A stretch of DNA of 63,267 bases, filler included, from Dimargaris cristalligena (Eukaryota): assembly GCA_003614675.1 (NCBI GenBank). It is 8 parts of 8 records of this genome, joined end to end, with 100 filler letters (N's around TTAATTAATTAA, not from the genome) between each part and the next. Parts side by side here need not be neighbours in the genome. Positions count along the whole stretch, not along the records: positions 39,686 to 47,497 come from ML003386.1; 7 more parts are not named here. The stretch is one strand, 5' to 3'. The position numbers and the translations under genes are program-made. A model generated the notes under the pieces. That model made no database searches. It was not told the DNA's origin and saw only the letters and a list, made by a program, of their open reading frames with translations. Below are positions 4,333-47,497 of this stretch, in pieces. Positions within the stretch are counted from its first letter, which is position 1; each line of letters begins with the position of its first letter.

Positions 4333-6105
4333 TGAGGGGGTCGTCAAATTCCCTTTAAGCCTCACCCAAGGTGTTTGATTCAATGGCCACGTGTGCAATT
4401 CCCCTTCCACGCTTCCGACATCCCTCCCCGCCTTTCCCGCATACTCATATCCACTGTTCCTACTCTATTGATGGCAGAGAGAGAGTGTGTGTGTGTGTGA
4501 GTGAGAGAAAGATTAGCCCCACATTCCCGCCATCTCTCCAACATCATCCCTGTATTTTTTTCGAGCTTCGTTTCCCGTGGAAAACACACATATATATATA
4601 TATCCGATCCGGCTTTTCTAGACACGTCGCAAATAGTGTGGCTAGCGACTATTATTGCGCTGTAGTGCGGTGGTTGGACAGGCCTTGGAACCACCCTTTG
4701 TTGTTGTTGTTTCTCCCTCCACCATATGTTAAACCTGCTCATACTATGCAGCCCATTATTACCACCACTCTCCCCTCCCCGTCTCCCATTTTTATTACCT
4801 GTTAGGTTAGCCCATACCATTAGTATTAGTTAATGTCCCTGTTAGTCATCATCACCCATTCGTTTCGTTTTGTTCTAGTATTTTTACCCCGATTCATTTT
4901 ATATTCTGAATTATACGTCTCCAGTCTACCCCCCCCTCTACACACACACCACCCACTTCATATGAATCCAAATCAAACCTCGTGATTGGGTGCTCCAAAA
5001 TGCCTGCCCAAGCGTATCCGCGTTCTGTTGCCACGGGCTTGTCCCCGAGTTTTATTCTCTAATGGATTAAAATAAAATAACCTTCATTGAATTTCTTAAG
5101 CGGATTTGACTATCGTGGCACCCGCTGTCTGATTTATGTAAATGTATATATTTTACTTGGAGACAGGTTAAATTACCCACTGGTCCAAATGAAGGGTAAT
5201 TTCACGGGACCCATGGGTCAGTTAGAAATCATTTACATATCCAACACCTTGCCATGCTGGCCTACCCCGGTCAGGGGATAGATGTGCCACTTGGGAGCAG
5301 GGCCAACCTTACCCTGGCCATTTCATATGGTATTTGTGTTTATCGCTGGCACTACTGTTGACGTACCTGCATAGTAGGGCAGCTAATGCGACCCTTTAGT
5401 GACAGTGGTACTATACGTTTTGGGCCGTTCACTGGTTCTGACCTGCTAATCCCAATATAGTATATAGTAAGGGGTCCTCCGAATCTTCTTCGTGGGTCAC
5501 TGTGTGAACCAGAGTGGGGTGGTGTGCTTGGAGAGTTGGTTAATGAGGGGGCGGATAAAGATGCTATACCAAGGATCCGCCCTTTGACCTTTGCGCTTCC
5601 TTTTCCTCTCCCCCACCTGGTCTGGTACATGGGCGGGGCTCTAGCCCGTGTGGATATTTAAAAATATCAATAAATGCAATATAAATTTCGACTGGTAAAG
5701 GTGGTGCGGGTGGTAACACACCAAGCCAGCTGAACCAATCTAAATATAGTGGGGTAGTAGTGGTCGCCGGTACTAAATTGGCTTGGGCCTGTAGGTCGGT
5801 TCCTTTTCGATTACGCGAAACATTCTGTACGAGGTGAGGACGGAGTTTGGATTGGTGATGGTCGTCATTCTAAACAAGGGGGCGGAAAAGGCGGGCAAAT
5901 AGCGATCAGGCTATGCAATTGGCCGACGACACGCACACACACATCGTAAAAGACCTTGTTTACGCTTTAGCCGTTTATGCTTGGAACAGAGAAAGAGAGA
6001 AAGAAAGAAATGGGAGAGAGATAGTTTTACAGGCGGTTTTTCCCCTGCATACACAGACGGTGTGTATGTGAATATTTATATATGGAGAGAGATGGTCATA
6101 GCCCT

Positions 6106-27465: not shown

Positions 27466-28686
27466 CTAATTATCGTCACTGTATTCTAGAGAGATCCCCA
27501 AATCTAATTGGGGCTGATATATATTAGTGCTGGATAGTTGCCTGGTGAACATTGGCTTATTGGGTGCTTTCTCGACACTAGGGACTCCCAGGGCCTCACT
27601 CGGCGCCTGGAAACTCCTGGCCCTTGAAATAGACGACTCTACGGGCTTCTGGCCACTGCCGTTAGCCATTGGCGCGGACGTCACCGGTACACTCGGAGGA
27701 TTCGATTTAGGAGTACTAACCGCCGTCGCCGGTGACCGCCGTGGTGGTGGCGGCGGTGGTAGTAGTGGTGCCCCAGGCAAAGTTCCTGTCGAGTGGGAGG
27801 GTTCAACCCGAATGGGTTTGGTAGCAATCTGGTCCGATTTGTAAGCAGTTTGGGGACCAGATTGGGTGGGTTTGTTTTGGGAAGGTCTTTTTCTTGCATC
27901 GGCGTTCCTGAATGCCCGAGCCGAGTTTCCTGTCGACTTGGGGATTATAAATGGGGAGAGCTGGGAGGTAGTCTGATCCGATTTGTAAGGAATTTTGGGA
28001 CTGACCTGAGTAAACGTGTCTTGAGAAAGTGGTTGGCTCGTATCGATATTCTTGAATGTACTGGCCATGATTTCGACTCTCTTTTTGGAGAGCGGGGCTC
28101 TAGGAGGCAGGGGAGGGGGGATATTCCCTGGACCCTGAAGGCCTTTGGAGTCGGTAAGGGGGGTCTTAGGAGGTAAGGGAGGAGGCACATTTTCCCTCCT
28201 GCCGGGATATGGGGGTGGTATTCCATTTTGTTGGTATGTATTGGCGGTTGTTCTCTGCCGTTGCTGCTGTTGCTGCTGTTGCGACTGCGGTTGAATTGGG
28301 GCGACGAGGTAAAAGGGCTGGGTTTTTACGGGTTGGCGGAGTCCTGGTTCTTGTTGCAATTGGGGGATCTGTTGTTGGGCGTTGTAAGGGGCTGGATTGT
28401 AAGGAGCCGCTGGACTGTTGTGGGAAGTAAACCCCACTTGGCCGGGGTTGTAATAAACCGGGTTGGAGTATTGTGGGTAGGAGTAGTGTTGGTTATTCTG
28501 AGTGCTAGTACCCCAGCCTCCGGTTACTAGCCCCCTAATGTCTGGTATATTTTGGAACGCACTGTTGTAGTAGGAGTTGCCAACTGGAAGCTGTAGGTTG
28601 GGGTCTAGCACTGGTCGGTACATGGGTGAGGCATGGATGGACATGCCCGCCAGCAAGATGGAAAATATGGTCAGCGGAACCCGCAT
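27466..28686 (-). CDS. Secreted Pro/Gln-rich disordered protein (406 aa), effector-like orphan
   Basis: Intronless ORF; signal-like MRVPLTIFSILLAGMSIHA-SP; PPPY, PPPLPPK, PPPLPPR, P7RR motifs; no Cys. Confidence 0.75.
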   Translation of the reverse strand: MRVPLTIFSILLAGMSIHASPMYRPVLDPNLQLPVGNSYYNSAFQNIPDIRGLVTGGWGTSTQNNQHYSYPQYSNPVYYNPGQVGFTSHNSPAAPYNPAPYNAQQQIPQLQQEPGLRQPVKTQPFYLVAPIQPQSQQQQQQQRQRTTANTYQQNGIPPPYPGRRENVPPPLPPKTPLTDSKGLQGPGNIPPPLPPRAPLSKKRVEIMASTFKNIDTSQPLSQDTFTQVSPKIPYKSDQTTSQLSPFIIPKSTGNSARAFRNADARKRPSQNKPTQSGPQTAYKSDQIATKPIRVEPSHSTGTLPGAPLLPPPPPPRRSPATAVSTPKSNPPSVPVTSAPMANGSGQKPVESSISRARSFQAPSEALGVPSVEKAPNKPMFTRQLSSTNIYQPQLDLGISLEYSDDN

Positions 28687-39685: not shown

Positions 39686-40000
39686 TCACTTTTGAGGATA
39701 GTGATGCTATGGAGGAGTAGATGCGGTATACTAAATGGGGATTCCATAGCGTGCCTTAATGCCATTAGTTCCGTTTATTATATCATCTCATATATTTTCT
39801 TAGTCATTGTCATTTCCATTCATTTGTTCTTTTTTTTTCTTTCTCCCCCAACTGTTTACATGCATGCACATGGTAAAGCATTAAATAAATCAACTTTCCG
39901 ATCCAATTATGGTTATTTAGTAAGCCGATTTTAATGTTGTATTATTTGGCTTGTCAAGACCCCATTGGAGATACACGGTCGCGGACTTATTATGGAGTCT

Positions 40001-40145
40001 ACATGGGTGAAATTCGACCCAACTATATACGGCCATCGATGGTATGTGTAGGGGGTAAATACGGGAGGGAATCGTTTGTAACTGGGAGTATTGGCTACAA
40101 CCGACGGATAATAGGCTATACATACTAATTGAATCTCTCCCATAT
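40001..40145. mobile_element. MITE-like element, divergent copy (145 bp)
   Basis: ACATGGGTGAAATTC...GAATCTCTCCCATAT; same length and layout as 25161-25304. Confidence 0.6.
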
Positions 40146-40376
40146 CTAGTACCATCTAAAACTCTAGAGGCTGATGACTCCGAAGTTATTCAAGGTACAC
40201 TAACTAACTAGAAGTGCCCACCAAACCCTAGCGACATTATACGCATTTATACGGGCCTATTAATCTAGGTATTCAGCATTTATAATACTATACTAATAGT
40301 TTGCTGTCCATAGTCAAAAGGCCAGTTTTAGTATCTTTTTATTTTTAAACATGTTGATTATGATAACCGTGCGTTG

Positions 40377-41508
40377 CTAATGAGCTGTCGCCAACGTCAA
40401 GTAATGGGAGATTTCCTGCAAATAAATGATTCCACACGGCAGTGTAAATCGCCAAGTTTCGCAATTGGCAATTATTTGGTGTGTTTTTGCATGTGCCGTG
40501 AGATGATTAGATTGGGGAAATGATTTAGGGCAAAGCGTGCAGGCAAAAGGTTTCTCCCCGGTGTGTGTTCGCATATGTACAAAGAGATGACTAGATTGTG
40601 AAAATAGTTTAAGGCAAGTTTTACAGGCATAAGATATCTGTTCCCCAACGTGCATCTTCATATGGATCCTGAAGTTTGTGGCATTTAAAAGTCGCTTCTA
40701 TACAAATCCCGCAAGTAAAGGGCGACTCCCTGGTGTGTATTTGCATATGCCTTTTAAGATTGTGATACCTTGAAAACGATTTCTTGCAAACACCACATAT
40801 GCCGGACTTTGCTTTTCTTTGGGATTTGGAATCGGTTTGGAGTCGCGTTTGGTCCGTGTTTGCGTGTGCATCTTGATTACAGGCGGACCGCTTCCTCTTG
40901 TTGGGGAATACTAAGTTATGGTCATGATGATCGGTCCCTACAGTTGTAGGTTGTTTGTGATGGTGGTTGCCAGGACTTAGCTCCGCCGGTTCCTTTTCCA
41001 ACCCCAGGAGCGGGCTGGGGTTGGATGCTAATGTACTTGCAATAGCTGAATCCAAAACCTTACCGGGAGGATTGTGTAGTAGCCCTGTGTCTACAGTGGA
41101 GCTGTCTCTCTCGTTATCAACGTCGATTGCATCATACATGCCGACCTCAAGGCGATGAAGGAATCCATTGGGAGTGGGTTGATTGCCAAGGTAATCTGCA
41201 TTGAGGGTGTTTTCTATTCGGAGGGGTTCCCTGATGTCACTGTCACTCATGGTCAGCGTGAGTTGGTCAATGAGTGATTCTAACCCATCACTGTCCAGTT
41301 GACTAATACGGTGGATGGTCTCCGATAATGGTGGGTCTCTGGTGTGGGGTCATGGGGTTGCCCTAGTAGCTGCATGGTTTAAAGTAAAATGAGGGCCATG
41401 GGTATAAAATGTGGTGTTTACATGGTCAAACTGGGGGTTGTGTTCACTAGAGGCACAGACTAGAGAGAGATAGGCTAGAGCAAGGTTGACCATTTTGTAC
41501 ACAAGCAT
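40377..41508 (-). pseudogene. Disrupted four-finger C2H2 zinc-finger gene with signal-peptide-like N-terminus (~376 aa reconstructed)
   Basis: Frame runs from ATG 41508/41493 through one TGA (41350-41352); an extra base at 40698-40701 breaks finger 2; fingers CGVC, CGIC, CKTC, CTLC with a TGEKPF linker; KRKR motif. Confidence 0.7.
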
Positions 41509-41739
41509 TTTAGGACTGCTGCTTGAGATTAGATGATTAAAGCAAAGGGTGAAGGGGTATCAGCTAATACAGAAATGGTAAAAATGATTAACAAACCACT
41601 AAAATACGCAATAATACTATAAAGTTGTCTATATGTACATGTTATCAATTTGGTATAATAAAAATAAAAACATGATAGCAATCAACAGTATGCATGTTAG
41701 GGGGGGCATGCTATGGTAAAAAAAGAGGGGATTGATGTC

Positions 41740-42188
41740 TGTCACCCAGGTTTACTACTCTTAGACTATCAAGGATCCCAAGGATAGGCTTCTAACAGTA
41801 GGCAGGGCTTAGACTTGGCCAAGTGGGCTACTAATATTAGGGTGGGCATAGTACTAATCAATAAAGGATAAGTGCAGGTGAATGCAAGGGACAGCTCCAG
41901 AGGGAGGTCCCAAGGGGAATGCTACTAAGACTAAGGTATAGGTAGATAAAGAGTCTGACTGGATAGCTTTATATCTGGAAGACTCTCATAGGAACTGGAA
42001 GAGTCATTTAGATCAGCTGGTTGAGTATTATGTGCAAAGCATTGGAGCTGGAAGGAGAAGGGTTATATAATAGATGACAATCCCATAGTACCGGGGGGTG
42101 ACTATGGGAGGGTTAATATGGTGTTATAAGGCTAAACAAGGACAGACAATTGTTAAGTCCAGATTAAGTCAGATTAGGAGGGCTGACA
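41740..42188 (-). mobile_element. Solo LTR, copy 2 (449 bp, internal deletion)
   Basis: TGTC...GACA; TSD ATGTC (41735-41739 and 42189-42193). Confidence 0.9.
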
Positions 42189-42791
42189 ATGTCTATATAT
42201 ATATGATATATCTGGAAATATGCATAAGGTTAACCTTACCTATATTAGAAATATGAATTCAATAGTAAATGCAAGTGCCTTCAGATGCAACTAAAAAGGA
42301 TTTAAAGAAGAGAGAAAGAACCACAAGGGGCAAGGCTAGATGCCCGCAGTTGGTTTTATTGAATTGGATAATAGCAGTAATAATGATTAGAATGAAGTCT
42401 AAGGTGTAGAATGATATAGTAATGGCTAGAATATAGTCCCGAGTATAGGATGGGCCAATCACAGAGATGGAATCAGTGGGACAGGGGAAATGAATTTCCA
42501 ACAACCTAGGCTTTAATACTTGAAGGTTTCACAGTGTTACATCATGTACCAATAAATACCCCAATACATTAACACATTAGTCTACATCAGGGCTACATTG
42601 TTTAATAATACTGGTACAAGCATCCATTAACTGATAAATAAATGGGAGCATACTCTGCTGATATAACCAAAAGGTTATCTCCAAAGTCCAGTTTGACCAT
42701 GGCCAACATTGGAGGGGGGGGATTCTGCCCAAGTGGTACATGTATTTCACATGAGGAATACCTGGCTACTAGGCAGTTGAATATAAATTCA

Positions 42792-42888
42792 AGGTGAGAG
42801 AAGTTTAATCTAGCTGTCTAGTGAAAGGTCCTGTTGGCAAGTTGTGTTATTTAAAATAGTATACAGCTATGTTGAATTTCTCCCATAC
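42792..42888. mobile_element. Possible short degenerate MITE copy
   Basis: GTGAGAGAAGTTTAATCTAGCTGT...ATACAGCTATGTTGAATTTCTCCCATAC resembles both TIRs. Confidence 0.4.
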
Positions 42889-42948
42889 AGATTTTTGAAG
42901 GTGGATAGAAGATAAATTTAGTATTATAATTTATTCAGTTATTGTAAA

Positions 42949-43532
42949 TATTACCCAGGTTAACTACTCTTAGTCCATCAAGAGTCCTGAGGATAGGCTT
43001 CCAACAGTAGGTGGGGCTTAGGCTCAGCCAAGCTGGCTACTAGTATTAAGTACAGGCACAGTCCTAACTAATAAAGGCTAAGTGTAAGTACAGGTAAAGG
43101 ATATATAGTGGGCACACTTACAAGTTAGTACAAGGGTGGGGTGAGTGTATATAGAGTTTATTGGGGTAAACTAGGGGGTAATAACAAGCTAAGGAATTGA
43201 ACTGGTCCCAGTGGGGCCTAGTTATATATACATAGGGACAGCTCCAGAGGGAGGTCCTAAGGGGAGCATACTACTAAGGCTACAGTATAAGTAAATGGGC
43301 TAACTGGATAGCCATAAGTATCCAAAAGACTCTAAGGGTAACTGGAAGAGTCCTTGGATCAGTACTTGAGTGATTAGTGCAAAGAGGCAGAGTCTAGAAG
43401 GGAAAGGGTTATATGATATAGGATGATCCCACAGTACTGGGGGTGACCATAGGAAGGTTAATATGGTACTATAAGTCCTAATGGGGATAGACCCTAGGGT
43501 ATCTAGATTAAGGAGGATTAGATGGTCTAATA
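42949..43532 (-). mobile_element. Solo LTR, copy 3 (degenerate termini)
   Basis: Starts TATTACCCAGG (from TGTCACCCGGG); collinear with other copies; no intact TSD. Confidence 0.8.
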
Positions 43533-43763
43533 ATGATTTAGAGGTTTAGATAGTGTAAGAAAATTGGTTAATTTAAAGAGGGTAATTGTTCTCAAAAAGG
43601 GGAGCTCAGAACAGTTGTTCCTATATTGAAATTTTATTTGGCAATCAAAATAGGTGGTATTTAGTTGTCCTTCTACATACCTTACAAAATAGTTAATTAA
43701 ATAATTAGGCAGGGCAGATATCTCATTAATATTGTAACTTATATACCATTCAGCCTTCCACAG

Positions 43764-44345
43764 TGTCAGCCCTCCTAATCTAACTTAATCCAGATTTAAA
43801 GATTGTCCATCCTTATTAGGCCTTATAATGCCATATTAACCCTCCCATAGTCACCCCCAGTACTATGGGGCCATCATTTATTATATAACCCTTCTCCTTC
43901 TCAACCTCAATGCTTTGCACCAAAACACTCAACCTGCTGATCCAAGACTCTTCTGGTTCCCATGAGAGTCTTCCAGATACAAAGCTGTCCAGTCGGATTC
44001 CTTATCCACCTATACCTTAGTCTTAGTAGCATTTCCCTTGGGACCTCCCTCTGGAGTCATCCCCGCATATATATAACTGGGCCCCACTGGGACCAATTCG
44101 ATTCCTTAGCTTATATTTACCCCCCTAGTTTATCCCAATAAACTCTATATACACATCCCTTTGTACTAAACTTGTAAGTGTGCTGCTGCACATCCCTTGC
44201 ATATACTGGCACTTATCCTTTATTAGTTAGTACTGTGCCCCATCCTAATGCTAGTAGCCTGCTTGGCCAAGTCTAAGCCCTGCCTACTATTAGAAGCCTA
44301 TCCTTGGGACTCTTAATGGACTAAGAGTGGTTAACCCAGGTGACA
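43764..44345 (+). mobile_element. Solo LTR, copy 4 (582 bp, opposite orientation)
   Basis: TGTC...GACA; TSD CACAG (43759-43763 and 44346-44350); TATATAA ~44070 then AATAAA 44137. Confidence 0.9.
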
Positions 44346-45945
44346 CACAGCATGGGCATGGCTAGAGACCTTTGAATATATCATATTTATTGACTATTTG
44401 ATAGCCTGCCACTGGGGCTTAATTATAGACTGTTTAATGGCATCACACATATACATTCTCCTATTCACCTCAAATGGTGCAGGATACAGTATAGGTCACC
44501 CGTTTGACTACTGCAGATCCCACAGCTGAAAACTGTCTGTAGCAAACTATCCTCAAACCTCTATTATTACGTTTACTATATACAACAAAGGCTCCCTTTG
44601 CAGCGTGTCATACAATGGTTCCCCTGGCAGGCAATATGTGCAGGAAATAACAGGTGGGCCACAAAGTCTCGGCCTGCGTAATCTTTATGTGCTTGACTTA
44701 GTTTACCGATATCTGCTTCAAATTAAATGGCCGAATACAGCTATGAAGGGAGTGGGTCCGAATACTAATGCACATCAGTTAGGGCTAAACCCGGCCAAAA
44801 TTAACACATTTCCCATTATTTTCGTCTAAAGGGTTTATATTTTATTTTGTACTTTCCCTGTCATTTAAAGTCTGGTCAATAGCTACTGCATTCATCTAAG
44901 CATAGTATAATTTAGTCGGCCTTTCACAGATTTTCTCCCTAAATTAAATGCAACTGATTTATACATTTTATACACATTGTTTTTAGAATATATGAATCCC
45001 TTGATTCAGCCCTTCGAATCTTCATGGTGAAGTCATTATATTCATAGAATACATATACTGACCTTCAAAGTACAATTAACTAACCGAGTTTGTAAGCATA
45101 AATAGATATGATAGAATACAACTTAGCTACCTGTGTATTTATAATGATGTTTATATCCCGACCTGCGAAGTGAGCAGCGGAAGATTTATATATCCATAGT
45201 AACACCTGAAGCCTTCATGTATATTAGACCTCCATATGCATAATTTACACTACTGGGCTTCATATCCATATAGATTTTCTGTTTCCAGTAGTCTGTAGTA
45301 TGGGAATTCCGCAACCTGAGTCATCTAATTAATACCAAGTGTACGCTGCCTTGCCCACTCCAGACAATATAAAAAGGTTAGCCTAGCGCAGACTTCACTC
45401 CAACAGGGCATTAAAATACTGCCAATTTATATTCTAGTCGTAATGTTTACAGTGCTGTAGCACATAGGTTTATATATTTAAAAATATCAAACATAGAAAT
45501 GAATGCACCATTATTGGGATGCCAAGGGTGCATTTATTTCCAAGGGTTGGGCTTCACTGGGATTGCCTAATCCAATGACTAGACAAATGAATAGCAAAAA
45601 AAGCCAATGGTATTTCGGGATGCACCTCGACGAATGGTGCTACTTGACCTAAATAAATCTAAAAAAATATTCAAAAATGGGTACAAGTAGTCAGGAAGGT
45701 ACAGGTCCCAGCCAAATTGCGGAATATAGGATTTGTGCGAACCATCAGGGGAGTAATTGGAACTACCACAATGTCCTGGTTTGGCTACACCGGGAATAGT
45801 GAGCAATCTATGATTGAATATAACTGGCAGAGAATGTGTGGATAATTACAGTTATGTTCATCTCCGCTGTGTGTGTAGGAGGGAGGGTGACCTAAAGGAT
45901 ACCCTAGTGCAAAAATTGTATCTCCAGAATAAAATGAGGGTGCTA

Positions 45946-46311
45946 CTAATTCCTTGTGGGTCTGTGTCTGGGATAATACCGTCGGTGACCCGGGTTTTCA
46001 CATAACCCAGGACATAGAGGACAGCGATTAGCTTTAGAACAAGTAGCTTCATGTATGTGCTGTCCTTGCACAGTGCCAAATGCACCGTTACAGCCTCTGC
46101 ACTTATACTGTAACTTGAACACCTCGCAGTCCCTTTGGTGTTCAATGAGAAGATTAGGACGAAGGAATTCACGATTACAAATGGGACACTTGGATTTACG
46201 TCTTTCTTTCTTCTTTTGACTGGGATTGTCACAAGATTCAGCGCCGTTGCTGGCATTTTCTATCGAATTGGGTAAATAATTGTTACCATGTCTAATGTCC
46301 TGATCGTCCAT
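45946..46311 (-). CDS. Small zinc-finger protein (C2HC-type fingers), possibly truncated
   Basis: KKKERRK basic patch; CPIC..HQRDC and CRGC..HEATC; incomplete third finger CPLC. Confidence 0.55.
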   Translation of the reverse strand: MDDQDIRHGNNYLPNSIENASNGAESCDNPSQKKKERRKSKCPICNREFLRPNLLIEHQRDCEVFKLQYKCRGCNGAFGTVQGQHIHEATCSKANRCPLCPGLCENPGHRRYYPRHRPTRN

Positions 46312-47497
46312 GGTTGTGTTGAGTGTACAGAGTTAATTGTGGGGTTGGGTATACAATGACTAAAATGAGGATGGAGGTACAGAGTTAAAAGTGTGATGAC
46401 TTAGCAGTTGGTGGCCAGCACTTGGGTCTAAATACTCGGGCGATTCTAGCAGAGTGACGAAAAATAGTTAATTAGCCTGTGAAAGTGGTTAAAGAATGTT
46501 GTAAAAGAAGAGGCACTTAAGGCTGGTGGCTTGATTTTCGATTAAATATCGCTGTCTGCATTTCCGTTATAAAAATTATGTGCTGGAATTTAGGAATATA
46601 CCAATGATTGGCGTGAAAGATGACTGCAGACTAGCAATGGAGTGGGGTGCTTTTTTAAAGAAGTATAATCAATCATCATCGGTGGTGTGCTTGATGTACT
46701 GACATGGGTCGGGATGGATTATCCTCTCCATAAGACAAACTAGTCGTGACCTTCGTCATGTGATCCCTGCGCATTCTACAGTTACACCCTTGCATGAGTA
46801 TTCGGAAGACCTATGTTGGTTAATCCTCGTCCGAAAACGAGTTCCTTTCCGCTTCCTGGACGGTAAAAGTGAATACCTCCACTTCCATGGATTGAGCACT
46901 CCGAGACCTATGAGTGGAACTCAAGGCTTCCACGTACATATATATATATACTGTTCACACGAGAACGTTGGATGATCCGAAGACATTTTTTATCTTCCAA
47001 TTTCCATTATTTTTCTTTCCTTCCTTTTCCGCTATTCGTTGAACTCGAAGACCCCGCCAGTTTTCCCCTTCACGGTTTTATGGCAGTTAGTCCATCTGCG
47101 GACGATGTCCGAAAGTCTTAGTATGAGTTTATGTCCACATCTACACGTTGCTATAAATATGTAGCACCAAGTCGGCCTTTAAAACAGCAAGTTATCACCG
47201 AGATAAGTTTTTATTAATCAGAATAAATATCTACCTTTAACTTCACCAGTGTTTTACACAGTTTACCCACCGAAGGACTTCAACCAGAAGTCACAATTTT
47301 GTTTTCTTATATCTTTTATTTTATTTCCCCTTACCCAGTTTACCAGCATGCAGCTACCGTGGCTCATCCAACTCCAAACTCCAGTGATGGGAGCATAGGA
47401 TCCATCAACCTGGAGTTGATTCCACCACACCCCAGCACCGCCTCCGAGTACAGTTCCGATCCCATCCGTATCGCCGAAGGACCGCTGCCTGAATTCT

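Follow-up and report, generated by a model that had tools for sequence, protein, structure and literature searches.

A broken gene on the minus strand of the Dimargaris cristalligena DNA analyzed here, a window of 63,267 nt made up of eight contigs (~7.9 kb each) joined by N spacers, belongs to a family of C2H2 zinc finger proteins with a signal-peptide-like start. The family, its architecture, the birth and death of its copies, and selection on the signal and on the structural residues of the zinc fingers are established. Judged from these sequences and by analogy with effectors of plant pathogens, the locus is probably a pseudogene whose family, lineage-specific and with fast turnover, encodes secreted DNA-binding effectors that would act in the host nucleus. 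The effector idea, put forward in the earlier note, fits the label of the organism, a mycoparasite that attacks moulds by means of haustoria.

The focal gene is located on contig G000:C1179 (window positions 39686 to 47497) of a 30.65-Mb assembly of 2220 contigs. The whole single-exon pseudogene extends on the minus strand from the start codon to a stop aligned with those of its paralogues (40472 to 41508) and shares 66% DNA identity with the intact copy G000:C127 (query 11 to 1223). From the ATG at 41508, the minus strand reads MLVYKMVNLALAYLSLVCASSE. Reading through a single TGA yields the signal-like start predicted in the earlier note. This segment (aa 1 to 19; 41452 to 41508), recognized by a hydropathy rule and not by SignalP, aligns with the paralogue starts and has a 9-residue hydropathy of 2.32, no acidic residues and small residues at -3 and -1; cleavage is probable after V-C-A. 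It is followed by the family N-terminal domain (aa 20 to 112; 41173 to 41451), which by composition is acidic and rich in aromatic residues and Leu. The KRKR basic patch noted earlier is present at aa 204 to 207 (40888 to 40899), and several long-array paralogues have a similar patch. The four fingers expected after removal of one extra base were all recovered: fingers 1 (40735 to 40797; C1179:1050-1112), 3 (40563 to 40631; C1179:878-946) and 4 (40479 to 40547; C1179:794-862) by Pfam and finger 2 (40650 to 40719) by DNA alignment with paralogues. Pfam zf-C2H2 matched one stretch in the open reading frame (ORF) that starts at 41250 and two in the downstream piece.

Three lesions interrupt the gene, two of which had been recognized before. 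Translation and paralogue alignment place an in-frame TGA at codon 53 (41350 to 41352), and an alignment of the DNA with that of three paralogues shows one inserted base near 40698 to 40701. This frameshift splits finger 2, so that the frame of the ATG at 41508 covers finger 1 and only the beginning of finger 2, and everything from there through finger 4 lies in another. The same alignment revealed a third lesion that had been missed, a gap of 2 nt where finger 4 ends (40483 to 40484). The original end had also been missed: the stops of the paralogues align with the TAA at 40472 to 40474, and the read-through tail of 33 codons down to 40377 (40377 to 40471) matches their 3' untranslated DNA. 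The tail was therefore rejected as original coding sequence. A gene start at 41250, which would have spoken against the signal, was likewise rejected, since the intact paralogues start at the position matching 41508. Over the 20 signal codons, the focal copy had a dN of 0.38 to 0.44 and a dS of 0.26 to 0.48 against three intact copies; values of dN equal to or near dS suggest, for these few codons, that constraint has been lost. Based on the three lesions and these values, the copy has decayed, and by the sequence of the assembly the locus is read as a true pseudogene. Its architecture is beyond chance because the same architecture is intact in 14 paralogues, whose existence the earlier note had only supposed.

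Two other ORFs were observed on the minus strand of the window. One, of 121 aa (45946 to 46311), has a KKKERRK patch and C2H2/C2HC-like fingers with weak Pfam matches and lacks a signal peptide. The other, of 406 aa (27466 to 28686), has a signal-like start and polyproline runs and is another possible effector.

Four single-protein genome searches with N-terminal regions gave 26, 16, 16 and 15 matches, which yielded 37 loci as a lower bound. Fourteen of these are intact single ORFs and one runs off the end of its contig; the other 22 are broken, having stops or frameshifts or lacking the ATG or other parts. Intactness was judged by six-frame translation with introns not modeled, and assembly errors may inflate the number of broken loci. 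The identical inverted copies C1426a and C1426b were counted as two; these family 5' fragments (L056 and L057; C1426:131-466 and 4973-5308) lie at both contig ends and are either a terminal inverted repeat or an assembly artifact. The family proteins have 223 to 456 aa and 2 to 9 fingers in a C-terminal C2H2 DNA-binding domain (Pfam PF00096/PF13465). Three subgroups were joined by BLAST of the pre-finger regions. The long-array subgroup (4 to 9 fingers) includes the intact copies C127, C1481 and C1735 and the focal copy, which is 44% identical to C127; C1266 has nine fingers in an open frame ended by the contig edge. The dispersed-finger subgroup consists of C14 and C474, and the two-finger subgroup has nine members (C1239, C332, C7, C253a, C253b, C259a, C259b, C546 and C588). 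The first ~300 coding bases of C14 (L102) and C474 (L103) are 98 to 100% identical, with upstream DNA at 52 to 78% and a finger-region dS of 0.40, a pattern that points to a recent gene conversion affecting the 5' module or to mis-assembly.

Among the best candidates of a C2H2 census were three further intact copies, divergent and only weakly or marginally similar (C291, C1133 and C880). Four more intact signal-bearing C2H2 ORFs (C883, C378, C670 and C13) show no clear N-region likeness to the family. The totals were 21 intact signal-bearing C2H2 ORFs and 22 ordinary ones, with seven internal-Met fragments belonging to broken copies, the broken C642 and a short signal-less array (C18:68200) excluded from both sets. 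A second family, which combines C2H2/C2HC arrays with a long acidic region and a different signal-like start, comprises one intact copy (L143:432-1808, on C13) and two broken paralogues (L184 on C32 and L186 on C642). Single signal-bearing C2H2 ORFs were found on C378 (L133:604-2373), C883 (L137:702-2411) and C670 (L145:855-1793), and C378 retains a full three-finger set like that of C78 and C155. An ordinary four-finger regulator, L032 (C73:14158-15589), is present twice in tandem with identical fingers.

The signal rule combined the highest hydropathy of any 9-residue stretch within the first 35 residues with the absence of acidic residues; its threshold was chosen post hoc, after the data had been seen. 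By this rule, which is not SignalP, a signal-like N-terminus was found in all 14 intact copies (2.19 to 3.09) and in 16 of the 18 starts of the genome's subtilases, but in none of the 22 ordinary C2H2 ORFs. The possibility, raised in the earlier note, that no paralogue carries a signal was thus not borne out. The hydropathy of the family differed from that of ordinary C2H2 ORFs (P = 6e-7) and not from that of the subtilases (P = 0.16). No later hydrophobic 19-mer in the intact copies exceeded 1.07, and none of these copies ends in HDEL or KDEL.

The start of the intact copies looks genuine. A purine occupies position -3 in 13 of the 14 copies, the DNA upstream of the start contains non-triplet indels in all six pairs compared, in-frame stops occur 30 to 132 nt 5' of the start in family copies, TATA-like boxes lie upstream in 12 of 14, and five intact copies correspond to full-length public models with the same start Met. 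No donor site is shared in the upstream DNA of the 14 intact copies. On the other side, the public models P0006 and P0009 carry a 21-aa extension spliced on ahead of the signal, and family genes might have a short upstream exon. On this sequence evidence, the intact family proteins are likely secreted. Public models mostly end before the fingers or retain the fingers only, which is an annotation blind spot. L046 (C1481) differs from P0005 of the same species at five amino acids in 192 residues, one being a Gln in the hydrophobic core; among the other copies compared with public models, four were identical and one differed at one site.

Residues 21 to 112 have a net charge of -8 to -18 and 14 to 23 F/W/Y/L residues in all 14 intact copies. 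By the same thresholds, set post hoc, only 5 of the 22 ordinary C2H2 ORFs had at least one 92-residue window of such a composition (32 windows out of 800), and 3 of 18 subtilase N-regions had it. The composition resembles that of acidic activation domains. The N-domain had no Pfam match, and AlphaFold models of paralogues were helical with low confidence (mean pLDDT, 49.9 and 57.5). The best fold search result, with a Z of 5.0 among helical repeats, amounts to no match, and the N-domain tree had no starred branches.

The fingers of the subgroups differ in their best-scoring matches. In all nine two-finger copies, as well as in C291, C1133, C880, C883 and C378, the finger pair scores highest against the genome's own regulators C78, C1 or C155. 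The two-finger copies retain 3 to 5 of the 5 signature residues of the C78-type regulator class, although 4 of 5 also occur in five other ordinary regulators, so the signature alone is not specific. The nearest last ligand is Cys in eight of the nine, as in C78, C1 and C369. The regulators C78, C1, C155 and C369, which the family finger pair matches, form a class that may be Crz1-type by its motif (contact residues R..D..R / R.D with a terminal C2HC finger), a name that further checks did not confirm. The fingers of C14 and C474 score highest against C18 and C634 by small margins; all these statements of finger origin rest on similarity scores. The long arrays are duplicated internally, with two identical recognition helices in C127, for example, and their top PDB matches are metazoan KRAB zinc finger and other long C2H2 arrays.

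The nuclear localization signal (NLS) is the weak part of the architecture proposed in the earlier note, whose signal-like start and fingers recur throughout the family. A regex for K-[KR]-x-[KR] upstream of the fingers matched the focal copy and 2 of 14 intact copies, with KKR in one more, and no classical NLS motif was matched in the nine two-finger copies. Three intact long-array copies searched with Pfam (E <= 0.1) had no KRAB, BTB or SCAN domain and matched zinc finger families only.

Selection was assessed as dN/dS by kappa-weighted counting pooled over six disjoint pairs. The signal (120 codons) gave 0.52 (0.34 to 0.84) and 0.57 (0.36 to 0.95), with confidence intervals (CI) that exclude 1, indicating purifying selection. 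The finger structural residues (102 codons) gave 0.08 to 0.11, a value that is partly circular, as these residues were labeled by pattern. Values were 0.90 to 1.04 for the N-domain, 0.97 to 1.10 for the linker and 0.89 to 1.04 for other finger residues. Base-contact residues (68 codons) gave 0.63 to 0.74 with a wide CI spanning 1, and no positive selection on them was shown with 68 codons in six disjoint pairs. Across 13 pairs, whole-gene dN/dS was 0.45 to 1.14, and the signal segment was the most constrained non-finger region, with the lowest or near lowest value in most pairs. In simulations, the neutral survival of five such ORFs at their own divergence was 0 to 0.027. This low survival and the low dN/dS of signal and zinc ligands show that selection maintains the intact copies: the signal and the zinc ligands are conserved, and the remainder changes fast. 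Values near 1 in the N-domain, the linker and the nonstructural finger residues fit relaxed constraint as well as an arms race.

A degenerate repeat block with direct and inverted nested copies (41733 to 44352; CpG observed/expected, 0.06) begins ~225 nt upstream of the focal start codon, and no tandem repeats were found on contig C1179. Related CpG-depleted repeat DNA was found near 10 of 34 other family loci and 3 of 27 subtilase loci but near none of the 22 ordinary C2H2 loci. With the repeat near only 10 of 34 loci, it was rejected as a systematic carrier of the family. DNA like this block also adjoins finger-only fragments on C255, C831 and C859. The median GC content was 0.43 for family loci versus 0.52 for ordinary C2H2 loci. 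Family loci share contigs with housekeeping genes and subtilases (27 matches), as on C644 and C291; a subtilase expansion is reported for D. cristalligena (PMC6784888).

Public proteins identical or nearly identical to family ORFs carry the label D. cristalligena. A profile search of 1.84 billion representatives gave 11 matches, of which 9 carry this label; the other two, P0011 and P0014, were dropped as repeat-driven chance matches, and no Mucorales protein was matched. Two more searches returned N-domain relatives under the D. cristalligena name only. A word-index search with C127 residues 1 to 200 gave no match among 549 candidates, the ESM Atlas gave no usable match for the N-region and only generic C2H2 clusters for the full protein, and none of the 170 pattern matches from a metagenome scan for one N-domain was confirmed as a relative. 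Exact look-ups found 0 of 8 sequences in one set and 4 of 10 in another. Animal matches in protein and PDB searches cover the fingers only. Public protein searches found no relatives in other Dimargaritales species, which may be due to fast evolution or poor gene models. One protein filed under Syncephalis pseudoplumigaleata, RKP25848.1, is identical to a Dimargaris family member (L090, C933). Since the strains of the two species were grown on different hosts (PMC6784888), this labeling is likely a cross-contamination.

The literature search, with most subscription papers outside it, found no description of the family and no effector described for Dimargaritales. The main texts of PMC9866270 and PMC6784888 do not mention zinc fingers; their supplements might list C2H2 counts. 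The family is thus apparently undescribed, and its public relatives are unnamed or truncated.

Other explanations of the family were weighed against the effector reading. If an upstream exon or a downstream start bypassed the hydrophobic N-terminus, or if it targeted poorly, the proteins could act in the parasite's own nucleus as fast-evolving zinc finger arrays, either KRAB-ZFP-like repeat watchers or ordinary regulators. Arrays of up to nine fingers with internal duplications, the AT-rich, repeat-associated DNA around the genes and the spliced extension in two public models would agree with such a role, but the constraint on the signal segment, the frameshifting indels and in-frame stops (-30 to -132) upstream, and the absence of such starts from ordinary C2H2 ORFs (0/22) make it unlikely. 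The single hydrophobic segment might also stay uncleaved and act as an anchor, tethering a transcription factor to the membrane of the parasite's endoplasmic reticulum (ER) until proteolysis frees it. DNA-binding fingers need a reducing compartment, which counts in favor of such an anchor. The segment is short, however (19-residue hydropathy, 0.66 to 1.85), a small-x-small motif recurs before S-E, and basic residues precede the segment and acidic ones follow it, a charge pattern that favors C-terminus-out topology. Anchoring is also unlikely, slightly more so than action in the parasite's own nucleus.

The proteins could also be secreted yet leave host genes unregulated, with extracellular nucleic acid, zinc or host proteins as their ligands, either at the interface or inside the host cytoplasm. 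Most copies lack a classical NLS, and their base-contact residues are not clearly constrained overall. Against this stand the retention of regulator signature residues (3 to 5 of 5) and a mostly terminal Cys ligand in the two-finger copies and their TGEKP-type linkers, which are typical of DNA-binding arrays; this role is about as improbable as the own-nucleus one. Host or laboratory contamination, or functionless duplicated repeat cargo, could account for the identical protein under S. pseudoplumigaleata, the 22 broken loci of 37 and the overall dN/dS of 0.45 to 1.14. Such an origin is very improbable and largely refuted by the contigs shared with housekeeping genes and expanded subtilases (C644 and C291), the occurrence of copies in two public accession series, the neutral ORF survival of <= 0.027, the limited association with the repeat, and the different hosts of the two named parasites (PMC6784888). 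Host contamination in particular was rejected, given the housekeeping-gene contigs and the lack of any Mucorales match among the 1.84 billion representatives. The effector reading itself has points against it: a classical NLS is present in only 2 to 3 of 14 intact copies, 22 of 37 loci are broken, and the Cys-rich fingers would have to survive the ER and enter the fungal host.

The nearest precedent is in Magnaporthe oryzae, for which 20 secreted proteins with DNA-binding domains are described, half of them C2H2; its secreted C2H2 effectors enter host nuclei and bind promoters, and MoHTR1 and MoHTR2 are repressors (PMC7672089). In MoHTR3, a signal and an NLS are combined with a C-terminal finger (PMC10189765). 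The Dimargaris family resembles MoHTR1-3 (PMC7672089, PMC10189765) in the order of signal peptide, basic region and C-terminal C2H2, although the basic patch is present only in some copies, and in being restricted to the lineage of a fungus with a biotrophic interface. MoHTR1 and MoHTR2 are small repressors of a plant target, modeled on single-finger GAGA binding (PMC7672089). The Dimargaris proteins, at 223 to 456 aa and with 2 to 9 tandem fingers, do not fit the small single-finger type (under ~300 aa). They also share an acidic domain of ~90 aa, are encoded at 37 or more loci, and face a host that is a fungus. The N-domain searches matched no Magnaporthe protein and gave no sign of a sequence link. 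By analogy, the family would work like MoHTR1-3, but with its several fingers, its separate N-domain and no visible sequence link it is not a member of the MoHTR family.

Transcription activator-like (TAL) effectors offer a second comparison, and TALE-like Btl/MTAL proteins of Mycetohabitans act in a fungal host (PMC12886408). The family shares with TAL effectors modular DNA-binding repeats, a predicted delivery signal and a diversifying set of proteins that, as proposed, would be aimed at host promoters. TAL effectors are bacterial, use type III secretion and have TALE repeats, whereas the family is eukaryotic, would use the ER pathway and has C2H2 fingers and an acidic region at the N-terminus; no TALE repeat was matched by Pfam. 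Metazoan KRAB zinc finger arrays combine one N-terminal module with tandem TGEKP-linked fingers and evolve by finger duplication and birth and death of copies. The family has all of these features, but also a signal-like start and an N-domain common to copies with fungal-looking fingers. With the own regulators C78, C1, C155 and C369, it shares the finger pair R-x-x-D-L-x-R-H / R-x-D-x-L-x-R-H and the mostly terminal Cys ligand. These regulators lie in GC-richer DNA and lack the hydrophobic N-terminus and the family N-domain.

In the proposed mechanism of secreted effectors, a cleavable signal peptide of ~20 aa would direct the protein into the secretory pathway, a step for which the sequence evidence is strong. 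As parasites of other fungi, Dimargaritales use an appressorium and a biotrophic haustorium (PMC9866270, PMC10386755), and on the basis of this lifestyle and the MoHTR precedent, the protein may be released at the haustorium and cross into the host cytoplasm. Basic patches, the fingers or its small size could then bring it into the host nucleus, where the fingers would bind host promoters. The two-finger subgroup keeps the base-contact residues of the parasite's own regulators and should recognize the same sites in the fungal host. By its composition, the acidic-aromatic N-domain would most likely activate transcription or else serve delivery.

A broader and speculative extension, which we consider possible but doubtful, is that about half of the detectable C2H2 genes form a modular TALE-like toolkit, in which an interchangeable module, made of signal and acidic domain, is joined either to finger sets taken from the parasite's own stress regulators or to expanded 4-to-9-finger arrays. 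Because the host is also a fungus, borrowed fingers would already fit its conserved promoter sites, so that host regulons would be switched directly; secretion signals would have been recruited onto C2H2 proteins several times independently within this one genome.

The focal gene is dead, but it led to a mycoparasite family of signal-peptide C2H2 proteins, and this family is real, under selection and apparently undescribed. The family bears on the open question of how biotrophic mycoparasites control a living fungal host via the haustorium, and it provides 14 intact single-exon candidates that are predicted to be secreted, host-nuclear and sequence-specific. If this is true, transcription-factor-like effectors would extend from plant pathogens to fungus-fungus parasitism, with multi-finger arrays in place of single fingers.
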